DNA from: a virus
Length of the DNA stretch: 64,000 nucleotides
Virus record (IMG/VR): IMGVR_UViG_3300028800_000069
Location: 1 to 64,000 of that record
Strand: one strand, 5' to 3'
Part shown: positions 12,220 through 45,366 of the stretch, one piece after another
How positions within the stretch are numbered: position 1 is the stretch's first letter
Layout of the letters: each line of letters begins with the position of its first letter
Position numbers and translations under genes: made by a program
Notes under the pieces: model-generated
What the model was told of the DNA's origin: nothing
The model's database searches: none
Seen by the model: the letters and a program-made list of their open reading frames with translations, nothing else

Positions 12220-12585
12220 TTATACCTTGGCGGCTGTTGCCGCTTCCTCTTCCAATTCCTTTGCGATCCTAGCTTCGTGCTCTTCTTGTTCTGCCTGCCA
12301 ACTCGTCTTGACTTGGGGAGACTGGAAGCTAGCGAAGCTTGGTTTTTCAGGTTTCTTTGCAGTGGGATCAATGCCTACGCGCCGATTTATATTCAGTTCG
12401 TATATACTGATTTTGGTCTGAAGAAACGCCTTCTCCGTTCGAAGCTCAGCGATCACCTGATCCTTGTCTTGTCGTACTCTTTGCAGGTCTTCACGTAGAA
12501 GAAGTAAATCTTTTTCTAAACGATCAACCAGCGACGAGTAGAACAGGTCATCCCAGAAACCTCTTATGCTAGATGCGATGCTCAT
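12220..12585 (-). CDS. Coiled-coil hypothetical protein
   Basis: Heptad-rich; ATGA overlap with the terminase stop. Confidence 0.55.
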   Translation of the reverse strand: MSIASSIRGFWDDLFYSSLVDRLEKDLLLLREDLQRVRQDKDQVIAELRTEKAFLQTKISIYELNINRRVGIDPTAKKPEKPSFASFQSPQVKTSWQAEQEEHEARIAKELEEEAATAAKV

Positions 12586-14261
12586 CCTTGATCCTGCTTT
12601 CCCATCCACACCGCTTGTTCCGGTGGGCGAAACGATGCATGCTTATTCTCGTTCTCTGCATCGAGCTTCATCTTTAGAAAATGTGCTGCTAGAGGATCAG
12701 TCTTTTTCAATGCAGCAACTCTTTCTGCCTCGACTTGCGCTTCGGGTTTCTTTTTGGCTGCTAGGTATCCGTACAGTCCGTATCGGAAACCGTCGTAGCA
12801 GTCATCACCTTTGGCGTTGACCTTTAGCACATCGTCCATCAAATCAGGGTTTCTCATCAACGACGGAATTGCTAAGATTATCTCTTTGCATGTGTCGAGG
12901 ATTACTAATTCACCTTTTTTGATAGCATTGTACATTAGCGATGCAGAACCTATGCGGTCCCTTGTCGCAGATGTAACCGGAGGAAGTCCCACAAGCTTCA
13001 ACGCTCGTGAGTATTCGTCCGCTGGTGTGCGGCTGTCCATTTGTCGATTAAACTTTTCGTGTGAAAAGTATATGGCCTTTAGAGTTACTGGTCTACCGTC
13101 TGGAAGGTGTGCTTTTGCTTTGATGATCGAGGCTAGCTCGTCCATCGTCTTTCCACCTGTTACCACTATCTCTTGAAAGCAAACTGTCTTGAGTCGGTAG
13201 TTGTCTCCAACTGAGTCCTTAACCATCGCTTTCGTAAATAAATACGTAGCGTTGGCGTGCTGCATGCCCCAGTCTTCTCCAGCCCAGCACGGTTGCCAGT
13301 CTTGCCAGATGATAGCCTCGGGGTCTTCTCGCAAATTTAATACGTGGTATGATGGGTCAAAGCAATCGAAGTATTGACCTTCAACTGCACCGTCGAACCC
13401 ATACAGAACTTTGTCGCGTTTCGCTTTTGGCATCGACATCAAACGAGCAACAATGCCGGGGTCGCGTGCTAGCAGTTCTGGGTTATCCAGCACTGTAGAT
13501 CGCTGATAAGCGTACGCATCTGGATCGTAAATCTTATTCCATTCTCCAGACTCTTGAATCCACCATGAACCGTCCACCGGATCACGCTTAGCGTCTTCTC
13601 CGGGGTTCCATGGTTCTTTCTGAACGAACAGCGTGCGGTAGTACTCGTAGTGCGGACCTAATGGGTTGGTGCATCCCACAATGGCCGGGATTGGAAGATT
13701 GCCTGCCTCGTCCCTCTCGCAAGCTGGGTTCACAATGTTACGTTGGAACAGCATCATCCACGCATCCGGCGAGAACTGTCCACATTCATCTACCAGAATG
13801 GCTGGGTATGCTTGTCCTAAGTACTGTTCGATATCTCTATCTTTGTTGTTCTGGCAATGCCCGAAGACTACGCGGGAGCCGTTCTTTAAAGTAGCAACGT
13901 GCTTCGTCTGGTCATAGTCATATAGTTCCTTCGGCATGAAGGTCTTGAAATCGGCAATAGCTCCGTTTTCCAATTCCTTGAAGTTCCTACGAAGGACCAA
14001 CAAGTTGCATCCTGTCCACTGCAGACAGTAATGCATCACAAAGTACATCAACCATCCACAGGTCTTTCCTGAACGGATTCCGCCAGTGCTGAGACACTGA
14101 CCAGCTGCTGGTTGAAGGTACACTTTGCCATCGCGCTGTACATACCTTAGCAACTCTGTTTGCTTTGCCTGAAACTTGAAAATCTTATCAAAGTTCAGCG
14201 TGCCGTCCGAGTTCAGGTACGGCTTTGTTTCTACCGCGTCTGTAGTTTTTCTACGGGGCAC
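12582..14261 (-). CDS. terL: Terminase large subunit
   Basis: Walker A GGIRSGKT, Walker B ILVDE, coupling motif CTNP, nuclease acidic motifs GEDWG and DDCYDGFRYG. Confidence 0.92.
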   Translation of the reverse strand: MPRRKTTDAVETKPYLNSDGTLNFDKIFKFQAKQTELLRYVQRDGKVYLQPAAGQCLSTGGIRSGKTCGWLMYFVMHYCLQWTGCNLLVLRRNFKELENGAIADFKTFMPKELYDYDQTKHVATLKNGSRVVFGHCQNNKDRDIEQYLGQAYPAILVDECGQFSPDAWMMLFQRNIVNPACERDEAGNLPIPAIVGCTNPLGPHYEYYRTLFVQKEPWNPGEDAKRDPVDGSWWIQESGEWNKIYDPDAYAYQRSTVLDNPELLARDPGIVARLMSMPKAKRDKVLYGFDGAVEGQYFDCFDPSYHVLNLREDPEAIIWQDWQPCWAGEDWGMQHANATYLFTKAMVKDSVGDNYRLKTVCFQEIVVTGGKTMDELASIIKAKAHLPDGRPVTLKAIYFSHEKFNRQMDSRTPADEYSRALKLVGLPPVTSATRDRIGSASLMYNAIKKGELVILDTCKEIILAIPSLMRNPDLMDDVLKVNAKGDDCYDGFRYGLYGYLAAKKKPEAQVEAERVAALKKTDPLAAHFLKMKLDAENENKHASFRPPEQAVWMGKQDQG

Positions 14262-14271
14262 TGAGTTGCCT

Positions 14272-14781
14272 CTATTTCTTTTCGTTTGTAGTGACGCTTA
14301 CCACTTCCGCAAATGATGGTTGTTTTGCTTTCTCAACAATGTTGTCCGCGTCTACAATCTTTGGGTTCATAATGTCTGGTGACACTACGATGATAGTCTT
14401 CACAGGCTGAGTCGTCAGTTTGTCCATTTCTTTTTCGGACGGGTCTTCTTTACCCAGCGCACGGCGCATAGCGACTTCATACGCTTTTACTGCTGCCATG
14501 TCAGCTTTCGGGTCTCCTGATCCTTCTCCCTGTGCAATACGCATGACGTTCCTGAATGCTACTTCGTGCTCTGTCAGTCCGGGGTTTTTCTTGTTTGGAC
14601 TGTTCAGGAACTTCCTATCTTTCCTTGTGAAATCTACCACTGGCGCTGGAGGTTTAGGTTTGCGTACGAACTGACCGCTACTTGCGCGAATCATTTCACG
14701 TGTGCCACCCTCCTTCGTCTTGATGACGACTAGGGCGGTCTCAGGTGGGGTTGCCACCTGAGGTTTTTCTGAGTCCGCCAT
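14272..14781 (-). CDS. Probable terminase small subunit
   Basis: 169 aa immediately upstream of terL; SGQFV near the N-terminus and a helical core. Confidence 0.5.
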   Translation of the reverse strand: MADSEKPQVATPPETALVVIKTKEGGTREMIRASSGQFVRKPKPPAPVVDFTRKDRKFLNSPNKKNPGLTEHEVAFRNVMRIAQGEGSGDPKADMAAVKAYEVAMRRALGKEDPSEKEMDKLTTQPVKTIIVVSPDIMNPKIVDADNIVEKAKQPSFAEVVSVTTNEKK

Positions 14782-14793
14782 GTCTTGTTCCTC

Positions 14794-15147
14794 TTACAGT
14801 TTCTTGAATTGAGCTACAGCAGCGTCGAACACGTACTCCGCTTTTGAGAGTCCGTACTTAACGTACAGTTTCTCGACAGCATCAGTAAAGGTCTTAGCCT
14901 TCGCTTCTGCTGAGACTTGTAGTCGGTGCATTTCCAGTTGAATCTTCAGGTACTCCAGTTCCGTTTCGCGGAGCAGAAGTTTTTCCTCTGCTTCGATCTT
15001 AACTAAAGCAGCCTTTACTTTCTCTTCAACCTTTTCCACTTCTGCAACGACTTCCTTCTCGACGGATTTCACTTCTGCAACCACGGCTTCAGTCACGGTC
15101 TTTACTTCGCCTTCAACTGCCTTCACTACGTTTTCTAGTTCGCTCAT
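14794..15147 (-). CDS. Glu/Lys/Val-rich coiled-coil protein
   Basis: Repetitive VVAEVK/VVAEVE N-terminus; RBS AGGAG. Confidence 0.55.
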   Translation of the reverse strand: MSELENVVKAVEGEVKTVTEAVVAEVKSVEKEVVAEVEKVEEKVKAALVKIEAEEKLLLRETELEYLKIQLEMHRLQVSAEAKAKTFTDAVEKLYVKYGLSKAEYVFDAAVAQFKKL

Positions 15148-15176: not shown

Positions 15177-15569
15177 TTAGAAAATCGTTAGACCTTTCAA
15201 GATGGCACCTTTCTTGAAAATCCCTCTATCAGAAATCTTTTGTCTCTGCTCTTCAAAAGCAGGCCCGTGATCATCACGCATTTTGGTTGCTACATGACAC
15301 ATCTCGTGCGCTAGTGTTGCAAGAACGGCTGTCTTACCGGGATTTTTGGTTTTGCTGATGATGATTATGTACTCGTGTCGATAGTGATCTTCGGCAAATG
15401 CCGTTGGAGAGTCGTGCTTGTCTGAAGTCCATGCAAAGTACTTTTCTTCAAACTTCTCAATCTCCAATTCGTTGATCCATCGTACACACACGTTGCTTGG
15501 AAGTTCATTGTGAAAGAACTTTTTATTTATAAGTCTGTACCAATGCTTTAGACACTTGTCGGATCGCAC
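15177..15569 (-). CDS. SprT-like zinc metalloprotease
   Basis: TLAHEMCH...HGPAF motif. Confidence 0.75.
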   Translation of the reverse strand: MRSDKCLKHWYRLINKKFFHNELPSNVCVRWINELEIEKFEEKYFAWTSDKHDSPTAFAEDHYRHEYIIIISKTKNPGKTAVLATLAHEMCHVATKMRDDHGPAFEEQRQKISDRGIFKKGAILKGLTIF

Positions 15570-15619
15570 TGCGATTCTCCAAGCTCACAACGCCTTCGGC
15601 GCATTCGAGCGTATAAACG

Positions 15620-16085
15620 ACAAAGGCTCAACCCTGTTAAGAGTTGAGCCTTAAACCCACCGTTCTTCACGGCAGGGGTGTATTTGAATGTGTCCTGTTA
15701 CCAGCCACGCGTTAACGCGGTCTTACAAGTTTTAGGGTACAGGTAAATCCCTTATGTGTGACATTCCCGAACTCGTGCCTTGCAAGGGTGAGGATCGGTG
15801 TCACTTGCTGCTGGTATAACCTGAACGCTACAGCTATACGTTCCCGGTCGCTGTTAATAAAGCCTATTGAGATAGAACAGCGAACGTCTCACAGGCTTAG
15901 TCGTTGAGTTGGCCTTGGCGCAACGATACGCCTTATGCGGTTTCCGTACCCCGCGCCGTTGCGTGCGGTGAAGACACGACGGACTAGTGCAGATCGAGGG
16001 ATGATCACTTCCCAAACATCTGCTTTCGATGCATCTCCTCCACCCCTATAGGGCACGTGCTTAAGTTACACCAAGCATCGAATCT
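15620..16085 (-). ncRNA. Candidate large structured ncRNA (~470 nt) ending in a terminator
   Basis: ORF-free; many helices, an H-type pseudoknot and long-range pairings; 3' hairpin AGGCTCAACTC/GGGTTGAGCCT followed by TTGTCGTTT. Confidence 0.6.
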
Positions 16086-16298
16086 TTACTTACTGATCTC
16101 TTTTGACTTTTCAACCGTTGGTCCGTCTTGAGCCAACGCTCCCAGCATTTCAAAACCGGGAGTCGTAATCATTGTGCCGCGCGGTTCGCTACGGTACAGT
16201 GTGTCGAGTTTCCTATGCGAATACGTTTCTTTCACGAAGTCTATCGTGAGGAAGATCGCAAGGAATAACAGAACTAAAAGAACTGTCATTGTGCTCAC
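16086..16298 (-). CDS. Small membrane-anchored protein
   Basis: N-terminal hydrophobic helix VLLVLLFLAIFLTI. Confidence 0.55.
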   Translation of the reverse strand: MSTMTVLLVLLFLAIFLTIDFVKETYSHRKLDTLYRSEPRGTMITTPGFEMLGALAQDGPTVEKSKEISK

Positions 16299-16313
16299 AC
16301 TTTCTTTTCAAAC

Positions 16314-16401: not shown

Positions 16402-16764
16402 TCAGTCTCTCGCGAGCCGCTGAGGTACCGGGTGCGTTTGTGTCTGCACTTGACATCTGTGAAATTTGCGGTGACAATTCGAACACAGTGTGTCGCACTT
16501 TGCTATTTCCAAAGCAAGGTGTTGCACCGACCAACCGTGATTGATTGCTGTCGCTATTTCCAATTCTTTTTTGCTTGGGTCTCTGTGGTGGAAGTCTAGA
16601 CATGCATCGTCTGCTTCTCCACACTGTATACAGGGATGTGTGCACCTGTACTCAGTTACCCATTTCTTTACTGCGGCTTTACGGTTCTTGTTCTCGTCTA
16701 ATCTTTGTTGCTTGTGCTTCTCGTAAAACCTTCTGCTCCACAACGCTTGTTTGGTCCTTGTCAT
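16402..16764 (-). CDS. HNH endonuclease
   Basis: PCIQCGE...LDFHHRDP...KCDTLCSNCHRKFH. Confidence 0.8.
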   Translation of the reverse strand: MTRTKQALWSRRFYEKHKQQRLDENKNRKAAVKKWVTEYRCTHPCIQCGEADDACLDFHHRDPSKKELEIATAINHGWSVQHLALEIAKCDTLCSNCHRKFHRCQVQTQTHPVPQRLARD

Positions 16765-16814
16765 ACGTTTCTCATTTCTGAGACTTTCGTATAACGGAGG
16801 GTCCACCACTCGGT

Positions 16815-17181: not shown

Positions 17182-17496
17182 TTAGTACTTCTTCAGATAC
17201 TCTAGAGCGCTCTCGAATAGATCAATTCTATCTTGAAACATACCTAGGACTCTGTTACATGTGCCACATAGAAAACCTCGTGGTACCGGAGGGTCTGAGT
17301 GCTTATGGTCAGCATGCAGTCTTCTTCCGTTAGTGGACTTTCTGTGGCATATAGCACACATTCCATCTTGTTTCTTCTCTTGCTCTTCGTAGCGTTCTTT
17401 TGTCCACCCTTGTTTCTTAACACGCCAAAGTAATTTCCTTAAACTTTCATCATAAGGATTGCACTTACACGCGCATTTACATCGTGAACAAGGCAT
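17182..17496 (-). CDS. Endonuclease VII-family nuclease
   Basis: QDGMCAIC...LHADHKH...RGFLCGTCNRVLGMF. Confidence 0.85.
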   Translation of the reverse strand: MPCSRCKCACKCNPYDESLRKLLWRVKKQGWTKERYEEQEKKQDGMCAICHRKSTNGRRLHADHKHSDPPVPRGFLCGTCNRVLGMFQDRIDLFESALEYLKKY

Positions 17497-17686
17497 GTTT
17501 TCTCCAAAGGTATAAGATGGCGAGGTGCGGCAAGTTCTCCGCACCACTGTACAGTTTCGCCAATGTCTCTATGCCGGGGCCGTCACAACCTCGAAAGGAG
17601 ATTACGAGGGACAGGCCCCGGCGTGCTACGCCGCATTGCGCGGTTGGTGCGGAAGAGAACTTTGCCCTTATTTGGGCTACTCTTAA

Positions 17687-17716
17687 AGTATACACCCTAC
17701 CTAAGCCGTCTGTCAA
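17687..17716 (-). promoter_or_regulatory. Near-consensus sigma70-like promoter for the leftward arm
   Basis: TTGACA-18 nt-TATACT, located where the two transcription arms diverge. Confidence 0.65.
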
Positions 17717-18330: not shown

Positions 18331-20946
18331 ATGCCAGAACTTGTGCAACAATTGCGTCCGCTCGACTTGAGCGCACTGCAGCCTCATCTCAACATCACGG
18401 TTATTAACGATGAGGCCGGACTTCTGCTGTTGAAAGATTATATCGCACGCAAGAAATCTCGCGGGGATTTTTCCGTAGGGTTGGACACTGAAACCAATAT
18501 GTGTGATGACTACTGGTTTCGTCGTGCGCGTACTATTCAAGTTGGAGATCGTGACGAGCAGTTTGTAATCGACCTGTTGGCCTTTGCTGGGTCCAAAGAT
18601 AGACTCATAGCTACGCAGGGAGAATACGGAGCAAACTGCAATGGCGTGTATGACAAAATCTTCGAAGTGCTACGCCCTGTACTGTGCACACGTGACTTCC
18701 TGAAGGTTGGTCAGAACCTTGCATTCGAGTACACGATTTTCTGGTGGAATTTTGGTGTGCGTATCTGGCACTTGTATTCCACGGATTTAGCCGAGCGCGT
18801 AATTCAGGCTGGAACGATTTCATTGAAGAAGATGGCCGAGTTTTCCATGGCGTCGATTGCGGCGCGTCACTTCCAGTTGTTGATTGATAAGACCCTGCAG
18901 CAGACGTTTGATTTAGAATCCCCACTGACTCAGAACCAGATTGAGTACGCTGCGTTTGACGTGCGTTTCCCACACGCGATGCGGCAGGCGCAAGTCAACA
19001 TTATGACTGCGGACCAACTCCTTACCACGGCTCAGATTGAAAATGATGCACTACCTACATTCGCAGACATGCCCATTAACGGGCAGAATCTGGACGACGA
19101 CCGTTGGAAGCTGCGTATTCAACACGTGATGGAGCGGCGTGCAGGCGAGCTAAAGACACTCGATGAAGGATTCATCCCAATAGTCGGTAAGAAGAACGAG
19201 CAGATTGATGAAGCAGAGATAGAGCGTCGATATAAGCACTGGCAGGAAGACTTCCAGTTACCTACGCAACTAGAGACTGATCTTGCAGCACAGAAACGCT
19301 TAGAAAAAGACAAGACAAAGAAGGCAGCACTAGGTGCTCTTTTGAAGGCAGAGGAAAAGAAGCGTGCTGAAGAAAAAGCCAAAGCACGCTCTGCTCACTC
19401 AGAATTAAGCAAGAAGCGCACTGAATGGAAGAAGCTGCTGGAGAAGTGTGAAGGCGAAGCCTATATAAACTATGGCTCACGCGATCAACTATTAGCAGCG
19501 CTGCAACAGATGCCGGGAATGCGAACGATCAAGGATACGACCGATGATACGTTGCTTCGGTACAATGATCGTCCACTCATTCAGACTCTAAGGAAATTCA
19601 ATAAGGGAAAGAAAGACACAGGAACATACGGACTGCAGTGGACCCAACGATGGATTACCAAGCCTTTGTCTAAAGAAGGCTGGAGGCATCCAGTAGATGG
19701 CCGTCTGCATTGTGAGTTCAATCAGCTAGAAGCTGAAACTGGACGCACCTCTTCATCCAAGCCTAACGCACAGAACTTGCCGAAGGACGATGAAGTTCGT
19801 GCCTGTTTCATTTGCGATCCACCTAATCCTTTGGTTCGCGTCTCGGTGTGCTGCGATTCAGACACATACCTTGTGAACAGCAAGTACACCTGCACAAAGT
19901 GTAAAGAGTACTGCGAGACCAAAGACGAAGAGATGTGCATCGTCACCTGCGACATGTCTGGAGCAGAACTCCGCATCATTGCAGAGCTAGCCAATGCCAC
20001 GTCGTGGATCAACGCATTCAACAGAGGGTGGGACGTTCACTCGGTATCTACAGAAATATTAGAGCCGCAGAAATGGCCTGCACTTGCGTGTGTTGGTGGA
20101 GAAACACACTTCGACAAGGAAAAGAACAAAGAAGTAGTTCTTCCTCCGTGCGCCTATTACGAGAAGGATGCAAATGGAGAACCTAAAAGACAGAAGTGCA
20201 AATGCCCCGGACACGTTGAGCTTCGACAAAAAACTAAGTCTATCAACTTCTTGCTTTGTTACGGTGGAGGACCAGCGGCTCTGGCCGATGACCTTGGCAT
20301 TACCGTAGATGCGGCAAAGGAATTGATGCGGCAGCACGAAGCTGCATTCCCTGATGTGTGGTCTTACCTTGAACGTAGCGGTAAGCTGGCAAAGGCTATG
20401 CGAGAAGCTAGGGACATGTTCGGCAGACGCCGTGCGTTCCCCGTGCCTACTCGTGAGATGGCCAAGGAATGGTGGAAGGATGAACACGAAGAGTCTCTGG
20501 AGTTAACAGAGGATGAGCAGAAAGCAAACATCTTCAGGTTCAAATCCACGCAACTGCGCGAGCCAAACAAAGAAGAATTAAAACAGCTAACGCACAGGAA
20601 CCCTACCGAGAAAGAAATCGACAGGGCCTTGTATGCTCTGGCAGGAAGCGTAGAACGCCGAGGAAAGAACCACTGTATCCAAGGAACAAACGCCTCTATC
20701 ATCAAACGTGCTATGGGCTGTGGCTTCGACAAGGACGGAAAGCCCTATCTCTGGCACACGTTGATACAGTACCGTGCCAAGGTACAGAACATGGTGCACG
20801 ATGAGTTGGTCATTGGCTGTCCGAAGAGATTCGGTAAGTTAGTGGCAGAACTTATTGCAGATGCGTTCAAGCGTGCGGCGGCAGAAGTCATGCATCTTGT
20901 GACAATGGAAGCTGACTACCATATAGCAAATCGTTGGATCAAATAA
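18331..20946 (+). CDS. polA: Family A DNA polymerase with 3'-5' exonuclease domain
   Basis: Exo motifs LDTET, QNLAFE and YAAFD; TGRTSSSKPNAQNLP; motif A CDMSGAELR; motif B RQKTKSINFLLCYG; IQGTNA; motif C VHDEL. Confidence 0.95.
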   Translation: MPELVQQLRPLDLSALQPHLNITVINDEAGLLLLKDYIARKKSRGDFSVGLDTETNMCDDYWFRRARTIQVGDRDEQFVIDLLAFAGSKDRLIATQGEYGANCNGVYDKIFEVLRPVLCTRDFLKVGQNLAFEYTIFWWNFGVRIWHLYSTDLAERVIQAGTISLKKMAEFSMASIAARHFQLLIDKTLQQTFDLESPLTQNQIEYAAFDVRFPHAMRQAQVNIMTADQLLTTAQIENDALPTFADMPINGQNLDDDRWKLRIQHVMERRAGELKTLDEGFIPIVGKKNEQIDEAEIERRYKHWQEDFQLPTQLETDLAAQKRLEKDKTKKAALGALLKAEEKKRAEEKAKARSAHSELSKKRTEWKKLLEKCEGEAYINYGSRDQLLAALQQMPGMRTIKDTTDDTLLRYNDRPLIQTLRKFNKGKKDTGTYGLQWTQRWITKPLSKEGWRHPVDGRLHCEFNQLEAETGRTSSSKPNAQNLPKDDEVRACFICDPPNPLVRVSVCCDSDTYLVNSKYTCTKCKEYCETKDEEMCIVTCDMSGAELRIIAELANATSWINAFNRGWDVHSVSTEILEPQKWPALACVGGETHFDKEKNKEVVLPPCAYYEKDANGEPKRQKCKCPGHVELRQKTKSINFLLCYGGGPAALADDLGITVDAAKELMRQHEAAFPDVWSYLERSGKLAKAMREARDMFGRRRAFPVPTREMAKEWWKDEHEESLELTEDEQKANIFRFKSTQLREPNKEELKQLTHRNPTEKEIDRALYALAGSVERRGKNHCIQGTNASIIKRAMGCGFDKDGKPYLWHTLIQYRAKVQNMVHDELVIGCPKRFGKLVAELIADAFKRAAAEVMHLVTMEADYHIANRWIK

Positions 20947-44695: not shown

Positions 44696-44893
44696 ATGCA
44701 ATCACGCACACCTGAAGGCAAGCACACCAAGCGGTTCATCATCTTAGTCGCGGGATCGGACAAGCAATACGTTCGCTCTGGAAACGATGGGCTTAGAGGG
44801 TTTTTTGCCACGAAGGAAGAGGCTCAGGCCGCTCTGGAACCATCCAAGGGTTTGACCAGCACAGGTTTGACCTACAAAGTTCGACAGAAGTAA
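44696..44893 (+). CDS. Small hypothetical protein
   Basis: AAGGAG before MQSRT; F.T...AQ..L...Y.(V/I) motif shared with 41790-41981. Confidence 0.5.
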   Translation: MQSRTPEGKHTKRFIILVAGSDKQYVRSGNDGLRGFFATKEEAQAALEPSKGLTSTGLTYKVRQK

Positions 44894-44904
44894 GTCACCA
44901 AGTT

Positions 44905-45330
44905 ACACACGTCAAAGAATGATTGCAGCATTGCAACACCTCGGTTCGAATCCGAGCAGGTCCACCAAGGGACATACATGCTGTGTACAGGCATGACACT
45001 CAAGAGCGGCGGCTGGTTAACTCAGACCGTGCAGCGTATCAGCGAAGAACTGGACCGCAGAGTGTAAGCTGGGGAACGGCATCCCTACTGTATGTATGCC
45101 CCTCGGTGGGCCTGATACTGGTTATCGACTGCGATGGACTGAGATCATTTTCGTGTCGGATTCTGCCTCGCCACGTTACGGAGAGTCAAAACCAAAAATG
45201 CTAACGATAACATCGTTTCTGCACCCATGAAGGCTATGGGCGCTGCTGCTGGTCGCTAAAGCAGTAGTGCAGTCTCACCACGCGGACCCCGGCTCAGTCC
45301 GGGGCCACCCGCAGTGGGAAAGTGTGGGGA
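44905..45330 (+). ncRNA. ssrA: Circularly permuted (two-piece) tmRNA; outer ends approximate
   Basis: Acceptor piece comes first (T arm CTCGG-TTCGAAT-CCGAG, CAGGTCC-ACCA ending 44967). Coding piece starts GGGCCTG at 45108 and gives a G3-U70 pair; TCGAC follows; P2 pairings join the pieces; tag ANDNIVSAPMKAMGAAAGR* at 45200-45259. Confidence 0.9.
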
Positions 45331-45366
45331 GCAATACCAACGTCTGGAGAATTAGAGGAACATTAA

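Follow-up and report, generated by a model that had tools for sequence, protein, structure and literature searches.

A predicted modular, multi-pseudoknotted RNA upstream of the packaging genes in a clade of uncultured phages

What occupies roughly 470 nucleotides (nt) that carry no recognisable gene, in the middle of an otherwise tightly packed block of genes, is the question raised by the locus described here. The DNA comes from an uncultured phage (IMG/VR record IMGVR_UViG_3300028800_000069, 82.7 kb, classed as linear and about 75% complete), and the window analysed is the first 64 kb (64,000 nt) of that record. All genes around the gap lie on the minus strand, with a SprT-like gene and the large terminase gene downstream of it. 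An initial annotation, made from the letters of this stretch and without database searches, had proposed that the gap encodes a novel, large, pseudoknotted non-coding RNA, perhaps linked to packaging or host takeover. Comparison with related phages leads us to predict a non-coding RNA gene at 15615-16087 on the minus strand, and the predicted product is a conserved, strand-specific RNA that contains several pseudoknots, opens with a defined start motif and ends at a terminator.

The absence of a protein-coding gene, on which that proposal was built, stands. Among the open reading frames (ORFs) inside 15620-16085, the two longest of the minus strand encode 55 and 53 amino acids (aa) and the longest of the plus strand 49 aa, stop codons occur in all six frames of the gap, and the longest open run extends over 63 of 155 codons, while the genes on either side are real. 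Close relatives differ in the gap by 1-nt indels as well as by indels of whole modules. Owing to the stops in six frames and to these two kinds of indel between close relatives, a coding reading was rejected. Folding of the single sequence gave z-scores of -2.69 for the minus strand and -2.86 for the plus strand; this is modest evidence, equal on both strands, and the case rests on the comparison with relatives.

Related viral contigs were gathered through the SprT-like protein and the terminase, and the gap was then searched by nhmmer. With the gap of the window as query, the same non-coding stretch was found upstream of the terminase gene in many related contigs. Altogether, more than 25 related contigs, viral or metagenomic, contain the RNA; they provide 21 distinct sequences of its 3' core, the only part found in all members. 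A covariance model of this core, termed R1, from which the pseudoknot pairs were left out, scores 73.5 bits in the window, and the core was recovered in 22 of 22 chosen sources. R1 matched six further loci among 54 searched and, with its filters off, gave four weak but syntenic matches among nine loci (E-values of 0.05-0.09). At every locus with an R1 match the terminase (TerL) is at least 67% identical to that of the window, and no R1 match was obtained at the 23 loci where the terminase is at most 66% identical and the upstream DNA extends over 1.6 kb or more. A scan for metagenome contigs with exact patterns yielded nine matches, of which one was false (L057; loci are referred to by L numbers where they need to be told apart). 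Exact patterns in 185,579 bacterial and archaeal species genomes gave no match in a first scan and three in a second, all judged to be chance matches since two of the three sites (L129 and L128) lie in coding-like sequence and R1 is significant at none of the three. No prophage copy or host was found through exact patterns in these genomes, a search that divergent copies would escape, and blastn in its distant mode found no match to the RNA in GenBank phages. The RNA family is known here from a single phage clade, that of uncultured soil or peat phages.

Collecting homologs and counting compensatory changes, as the initial annotation had suggested, supports three parts of the fold. For the 3' core, 16 pairs compared over 21 sequences (17 had been used in an earlier count) are paired in 95.8% of cases, against 30-49% in slid controls, and 8 of the 16 pairs changed on both sides. 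The central H-type pseudoknot reaches 99.4% over 10 pairs in 16 sequences (slid controls 30-46%), both partners having changed in 7 of the 10, and the segment made of P3 and P4 reaches 95.4% over 13 pairs in 10 sequences (slid controls 20-47%), with 7 of 13 pairs so changed. None of 500 shuffles was as high in any of the three cases, a control that is inflated by the relatedness of the sequences; more weight belongs to the slid controls and to the large number of independent pair types. The pairs of the 3' pseudoknot, which occur as CCUGU/ACAGG, CCCGC/GCGGG, CCAGU/ACUGG, CUCGG/CCGAG and CCGUU/AACGG, are absent from R1, so that the pair count was not fitted to the model. Similarly, stem 2 of the central pseudoknot has a different sequence in L012, L044, L024, L032 and L072. 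One pair of the 3' core is U-G in 17 of the 21 sequences, and the strand-specific G-U pairs of the core and of the central pseudoknot indicate that the RNA corresponds to the minus strand. The large structured RNA foreseen from a single genome is borne out as a prediction: more than 20 distinct sequences conserve it with compensatory changes, and it has no match in Rfam 15.

Searches for known families gave a consistent answer. Rfam 15 at gathering threshold has nothing over the RNA in the window, and all 4227 families run with permissive filters (cmscan) have nothing over it in 15400-16300 (E-value up to 10) or in eight relatives (E-value up to 5). The initial annotation could not assign the RNA to ribonuclease P (RNase P), transfer-messenger RNA (tmRNA) or a group I or II intron, and we concur. 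RNase P RNA models gave no match at these same E-value limits in the window and the eight relatives, and a covarying P4-like pairing of CR-I and CR-V was not found by eye. At the RNA there is no tmRNA by ARAGORN or Rfam, the only one being a permuted tmRNA at 44875-45350. Group I and II intron models have no match; the upstream ORF ends at its own stop and the SprT-like gene has its own GGAG. The GOLLD model (RF02032, gathering score 150 bits) has no match in the whole phage record at E-values up to 10, and the ROOL model (RF03087, gathering score 99.1 bits) has none in the whole record, an answer that is weak because control genomes were also negative. A literature search found no description of this RNA. 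PMC10690425 catalogues 8,495 candidate structured RNAs from IMG/VR, each 29-151 nt long and unnamed, and single modules of the RNA may already be among these candidates. We regard the RNA as a new family within the class of large, ornate phage RNAs whose function is unknown; no described family includes it.

The remaining elements of the fold were recognised on other grounds. P1, in which TTCGATGC pairs with GCATCGAA as originally listed, recurs with changed sequences in relatives; 13 of 20 members have a contiguous partner of 7-8 base pairs (bp), and the stem sequence takes several forms among them. P2 and Pc were examined through folds of each sequence, which reveal a common shape and carry no covariation statistic. 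The helix GCAGAT/ATCTGC, already noticed in the window, is the outer stem of P2, and all 11 homologous hairpins fold alike; GTGACA/TGTCAC, also on the original list, belongs to Pc, where 9 of 9 homologous segments fold alone into the same four tiers with different sequences. The H-type pseudoknot of the initial annotation was likewise recovered, as an optional accessory module carried by five members, in each of which a stem 1 of different sequence occupies the same place (duplex-versus-shuffle p-values of 0.0015 to 0.16 each, Fisher combined 1.4e-4). The loop at about 15834-15830 of the adjoining hairpin may pair with 15811-15807, a tentative reading (five members, Fisher p 0.017). Judged by eye, a 3' accessory hairpin is confined to some members (the window, L002, L003, L041, L033 and L059), and the stem of the intrinsic terminator, which had been predicted correctly, varies in sequence among relatives with its pairing retained. 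The spacer from the core to the terminator varies in length and content.

Although the pseudoknot, local helices, long-range pairings and terminator of the initial annotation can all be located in the window where it placed them, other pairings had to be revised or set aside. The two 7-bp long-range pairings of the initial annotation (16041-16047 with 15674-15680 and 15968-15974 with 15664-15670) can be drawn in the window but are not kept in relatives (by eye); their strands compete with local hairpins that keep pairing while changing sequence in relatives. Neither long-range pairing is confirmed. The helix CGCAACG/CGTTGCG was mistaken, since CGTTG pairs with a downstream CAACG as stem 2 of the central pseudoknot, and so was ACCAGC/GCTGGT, whose GCTGG belongs to Pb of the 3' core. 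A riboswitch-type pairing between the central loop and the terminator, seen in the window and partly in L003 and absent from L020 and L041 (by eye), was rejected. Similarly rejected was a pairing of the loop GGUACGGAAA with UAGUCCG, which is inconsistent across members and whose UCCG is better placed in the P3 extension, the pairs of which never vary. A closing helix of 5' UUUGAA with 3' UUCAAA is visible by eye in some members only and is not claimed.

The start motif AAAGAUUCG, kept in 18 of 20 members, marks the 5' boundary. From this motif to the end of the 3' core the members measure 229-751 nt, a tail and terminator of 60-115 nt then follow, and whole members span about 290-820 nt through swapped modules. 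The minimal forms (L089, L032 and L084, in which the stretch between start motif and core end takes up about 230-240 nt) retain the central pseudoknot and the 3' core along with P1, Pc and a single hairpin; to these the version of the window adds the GAUCA hairpin, P3 with P4, and a double-pseudoknot module, while other members carry further modules, including duplicated ones in L044. On this comparison, optional hairpin and pseudoknot modules are gained, lost or duplicated between members. At about 2530-2590 of L044 a unit of ~17 nt, GCAGATGTTCTGGGCAT, stands in three tandem copies inside the RNA, and a module of ~40 nt, GTCCCGAG...GGGAC/GGGCA, is present twice in the same locus; these repeated units indicate that modules duplicate within the RNA. 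The contig of L018 begins in the tail of the RNA. That of L023 (1-500) begins in the 5' part, matching L024, and continues as unrelated, apparently coding sequence, a change that may be an insertion disrupting the RNA. Coordinates of all elements in the window, and of the genes around them, are collected in Table 1.

Table 1. Elements of the predicted RNA and neighbouring features in the window
Feature	Position	Strand	Pairing or remark
Whole RNA gene, ~470 nt	15615-16087	-	Begins with the start motif, which directly follows the upstream ORF's TAA, and ends at the terminator U-tract
3' core, universal	15694-15752	-	21 distinct sequences
Pa	15752-15749 with 15737-15734	-	Hairpin of the 3' core
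3' pseudoknot	15743-15739 with 15698-15694	-	3' core; loop of Pa with the strand after Pb
Pb, with conserved bulge	15730-15728 with 15702-15700; 15723-15719 with 15706-15703	-	3' core
Central H-type pseudoknot	15901-15932	-	Stem 1 (S1) 15932-15929 with 15920-15917; stem 2 (S2) 15926-15921 with 15906-15901
Central pseudoknot loop	GGCC at 15914-15911	-	Conserved AAGGCCAACU; 4-bp S1, 6-bp S2
P3 extension, P3 and P4	15937-15982	-	Covariation count, 10 sequences
P3 extension	15982-15979 with 15959-15956	-	CCGU with ACGG; 3 of 4 pairs invariant, uninformative
P3	15978-15975 with 15965-15962	-	5 of 5 pairs changed on both sides
P4 hairpin	15954-15951 with 15940-15937	-	Conserved 10-nt loop GGUACGGAAA
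P1 hairpin domain	16025-16082	-	16082-16075 with 16032-16025; inner hairpin 16055-16051 with 16045-16041 (by eye)
P2 (GAUCA) hairpin	15989-16023	-	Outer 16023-16018 with 15994-15989; inner 16013-16010 with 16001-15998
P2 loop palindrome UGAUCA	16007-16002	-	Homologous hairpins compared
Accessory H-type pseudoknot	15848-15898	-	S1 15898-15893 with 15865-15860; S2 15883-15876 with 15855-15848
Accessory pseudoknot, S1 extension	15890-15887 with 15872-15869	-	Same module
Hairpin	15807-15843	-	15843-15839 with 15827-15823; stem GAACG/CGUUC, GAGCG/CGCUC in L044
Pc four-tier stem	15758-15804	-	15804-15799 with 15763-15758; 15798-15795 with 15770-15767; 15792-15790 with 15774-15772; tip 15787-15785 with 15780-15778
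3' accessory hairpin	15656-15676	-	15676-15670 with 15662-15656, loop UGAAGAA (by eye)
Intrinsic terminator	15615-15652	-	13-bp stem 15652-15623, then U-tract
Leader hairpin	15575-15612	-	Between terminator and GGAG; GCUC 15610-15607 with GAGC 15586-15583 around an inner hairpin
Sigma-70-like promoter match	17687-17716	-	TTGACA-18 nt-TATACT, 11/12; before endonuclease VII, HNH, 70-aa ORF and RNA block
Endonuclease VII gene	17182-17547	-	Upstream of RNA
HNH endonuclease gene	16402-16809	-	PHROG match, E-value 2.5e-21
70-aa ORF	16086-16298	-	Directly upstream of RNA; own TAA stop
SprT-like gene	15177-15569	-	PF10263, E-value 4.6e-7; downstream of RNA
Two small ORFs	14794-15147 and 14272-14781	-	ORF list
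Large terminase gene	12582-14261	-	Downstream of RNA

On the upstream side, a family-A DNA polymerase gene starts at 18331 on the opposite strand, and no minus-strand terminator-like site was found between the promoter-like site at 17716-17687 and the RNA. Neither of two sequences considered as recurring promoter motifs is above chance in the window (GTCGTTTATACGC, 11 matches against 12 expected; AAAGATTCGA, 4 against 3.6). A tRNA gene on the same strand lies 1-270 nt upstream of the start motif in 9 of 20 members and at most 10 nt away in five, the distance from the tRNA 3' end being 1 nt in L029 and L089 and 7-10 nt in L002, L058 and L033; in the window itself ARAGORN found no tRNA gene just upstream of the RNA. 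In L003, L053 and L059, members without an abutting tRNA, a conserved hairpin CUGCC...GGCAG with GUUGGGACUCCACAGC inside stands ~60 nt before the RNA start. Weak matches to YrlA (RF02553, Y-RNA-like; 30-35 bits, below the gathering score of 69) lie amid the tRNA genes that precede the RNA in the relatives L012 (2178-2329), L013 (157-227) and L003 (1747-1851).

On the downstream side, the order of RNA, terminator, conserved leader hairpin and SprT-like gene is the same in every member examined, and the ORF that follows the RNA is SprT-like by Pfam in 8 of 10 relatives tested (two above the Pfam cut-off and six below, E-values up to 0.0035). By eye, the stem of the leader hairpin reads GCCC/GGGC, GUCC/GGAC or GCUCG/CGAGC in relatives, and a second hairpin precedes it in one subgroup. 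The RNA is separable from this late-gene leader, as in L044 (after 3020) and L018 (1-560) the two are parted by an ORF with an HHKDGNHEN motif, HNH-like by eye; in L018 this ORF is followed by a terminator-like hairpin of its own.

Amongst RNAs already described, GOLLD and ROOL invite comparison. As described (bioRxiv 10.1101/2024.12.08.627333, PMC5737381), both are borne by phages or prophages, often lie near tRNA islands and assemble via kissing loops; in GOLLD the 3' region is conserved, the 5' region less so, and there are multiple pseudoknots, and ROOL, ~580 nt long and found near tRNAs, has multistem junctions and three pseudoknots and forms cages via kissing loops. Measured against these descriptions, the RNA is like GOLLD in being a large ornate phage RNA near tRNA genes, with a conserved 3' part, a variable 5' part and multiple pseudoknots, a resemblance of context and not homology. 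It differs in the lack of a covariance-model match, in its helices and conserved strings, in its restriction to a single phage clade and in length (~290-820 nt, whereas GOLLD often exceeds 800 nt). With ROOL, so described, it has in common the phage origin, the tRNA neighbourhood and the pseudoknots, but there is no model match, and a string of hairpin and H-type pseudoknot modules contrasts with the six multistem junctions of ROOL.

The stable RNAs of phage T4, species 1 and 2 (rnaC and rnaD), are non-tRNA RNAs of a tRNA cluster that are cut from one precursor together with the tRNAs and are simple molecules of ~120-140 nt. The present RNA is similarly encoded alongside phage tRNAs but is three to six times larger and pseudoknotted. 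The pRNA of phi29 serves DNA packaging and oligomerises by loop-loop pairing, each loop pairing with a different loop and not with itself. Like it, the RNA lies beside packaging genes, and it has self-complementary loops; unlike it, there is no Rfam match of any kind, and the phage clade has a conventional large terminase.

The account that we favour, to which we would give about an even chance, is that of a stable folded RNA of the GOLLD and ROOL kind that acts in trans. Transcription would start at the promoter-like site near 17716-17687 and run leftward through the upstream genes, which in relatives include phage tRNA genes, into the RNA, and tRNA 3'-end processing would free the 5' end of the RNA where a tRNA abuts. 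The RNA would then act in trans as a stable folded molecule, as GOLLD and ROOL do, and the mechanism we prefer is self-association, known for RNAs such as ROOL, GOLLD and OLE, whose copies are joined by kissing loops. Copies of the RNA would pair through UGAUCA and GGCC, exposed loops that are self-complementary, to form a dimer or a larger assembly, which would bind or hold a partner during infection. The terminator forming the 3' end would also shield the packaging operon from upstream transcription. Among the 11 P2 hairpins, the loop palindrome extends over 6-8 nt in six, is reduced to GAUC in three and is absent in two. The loop reads UGAUCA in five hairpins, and in L033 it reads UCAUGA within GUCAUGAC, a swap that preserves self-complementarity. 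The suggestion, carried over from the initial annotation, of a link to packaging or host takeover is a hedged idea drawn only from the position of the RNA upstream of the SprT-like and terminase genes. A more specific proposal, in which the RNA would be a homo-oligomer held by its UGAUCA and GGCC loops, a third independently evolved phage RNA assembly beside GOLLD and ROOL, acting in the switch to DNA packaging or in its mechanics, through gating of the terminator before the terminase operon or pRNA-like work with packaging proteins, strikes us as unlikely.

Several observations weigh against a trans-acting, self-associating RNA. Self-association is predicted from the loop sequences only. The P2 loops of L081 and L082 lack the palindrome, and GGCC, kept in 15 of 16 central loops with UGCC in L044, shows no informative variation. 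The relatedness that inflates the shuffle controls counts here too, and although the RNA always precedes the SprT-like and terminase genes, the members are close kin and this constancy carries little weight either way. No sigma-70-like promoter was found in the ~54 nt between the terminator of the RNA and the start codon of the SprT-like gene, so that the packaging genes may depend on read-through of the terminator, which favours a function in cis.

In such a cis-acting leader, a possibility that we entertain with some doubt, the ~70-nt 3' core would act on the polymerase or sense a factor, the terminator would be passed into the operon of the SprT-like, terminase and portal genes, and the 5' part would be accessory. 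In HK022 (the put RNA) and lambda (the pR'-tR' or 6S leader), a transcribed element stands immediately in front of a terminator, beyond which lie essential late genes. The RNA is comparable in that its 3' core consists of two stem-loops in ~70 nt and that RNA, terminator and late genes follow one another without a promoter-like site between. Besides the missing promoter, the leader is supported by the fixed gene order described above and by the core being the sole universal part, always ~40-115 nt before the terminator. Unlike put, however, the RNA has a pseudoknot, a 5' body several times larger and, in relatives, fusion to tRNA genes; a length of 290-820 nt, at least four pseudoknots and swappable modules far exceed the needs of known processive antiterminator RNAs. 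The variable spacer between core and terminator argues against an alternative pairing of the riboswitch type, the placing of the RNA 5' end next to tRNA 3' ends is what a processed stable RNA would show, and phage-specific promoters would escape a sigma-70 scan. Action in trans and action in cis are not mutually exclusive.

Three further explanations appear much less probable to us. A ribozyme or RNA-processing element, for instance one that excises itself from a tRNA precursor or acts on tRNAs, would suit a large pseudoknotted fold with the invariant unpaired stretches GGUACGGAAA, AAGGCCAACU and UGUAAG that is fused to tRNA genes in relatives, but no ribozyme family of Rfam 15 matches, there is neither a sign of exons nor a cleavage-site signature, and the minimal forms indicate that most of the length is dispensable; we consider it improbable. 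Still less probable is a very divergent RNase P RNA, tmRNA, group I intron, GOLLD or ROOL that the covariance models missed. The conserved 3' and variable 5' parts recall GOLLD, and a few short strings could be taken as echoes of known RNAs (GGCUGGUAACAG and AAGGCCAA, presumably of E. coli M1 RNA; GAAAGUC, which we take to be like RNase P CR-I; UCAACGACUAAG, presumably of the group I R element), which no model supports. Permissive Rfam scans are nevertheless empty over the RNA, as are the GOLLD and the less telling ROOL searches of the whole record, ARAGORN places the tmRNA elsewhere, at 44.9 kb, and both flanking ORFs are complete, so that there are no exons to join. A site acting at the level of DNA (cos or pac, an origin or a protein-binding array) has the slightest chance of all. 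HK97-type phages place cos between the HNH endonuclease and terminase genes, where the gap lies, and TGATCA and GGCC are DNA palindromes; the compensatory changes, however, preserve pairing and not sequence, the G-U pairs are frequent and strand-specific, and pseudoknots are meaningless in duplex DNA.

Bacteria and phages have few large RNAs that combine an intricate fold with an unknown function. RNase P, tmRNA, group I and II introns, OLE, GOLLD and ROOL each have sophisticated biochemistry or an unexpected architecture. The predicted RNA would be a third phage example with a tRNA neighbourhood and a conserved 3' core joined to a variable 5' body, as in GOLLD and ROOL, yet with an unrelated fold, which suggests that RNAs of this type have arisen in phages again and again to serve a shared need. 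Module swapping, from ~230 to ~750 nt between start motif and core end, provides a natural deletion series for structural and functional work, and the position of the RNA at a terminator before the packaging operon makes the choice between cis and trans amenable to simple transcription assays.

Two observations concern other parts of these genomes. The terminase match extends over ~2.4 kb for ~555 residues in L033 (5001-7403), L041 (5001-7415) and L114 (924-3335), compared with ~1.67 kb at other loci, and the gene seems to carry an insertion of ~0.7 kb, an intron or an intein, at these three loci. In the window, the permuted tmRNA mentioned above is a circularly permuted (two-piece) gene on the plus strand (44875-45350), matched by the Rfam model tmRNA_permuted with 52.3 bits at 44907-45260, and its tag peptide is given by ARAGORN as ANDNIVSAPMKAMGAAAGR.

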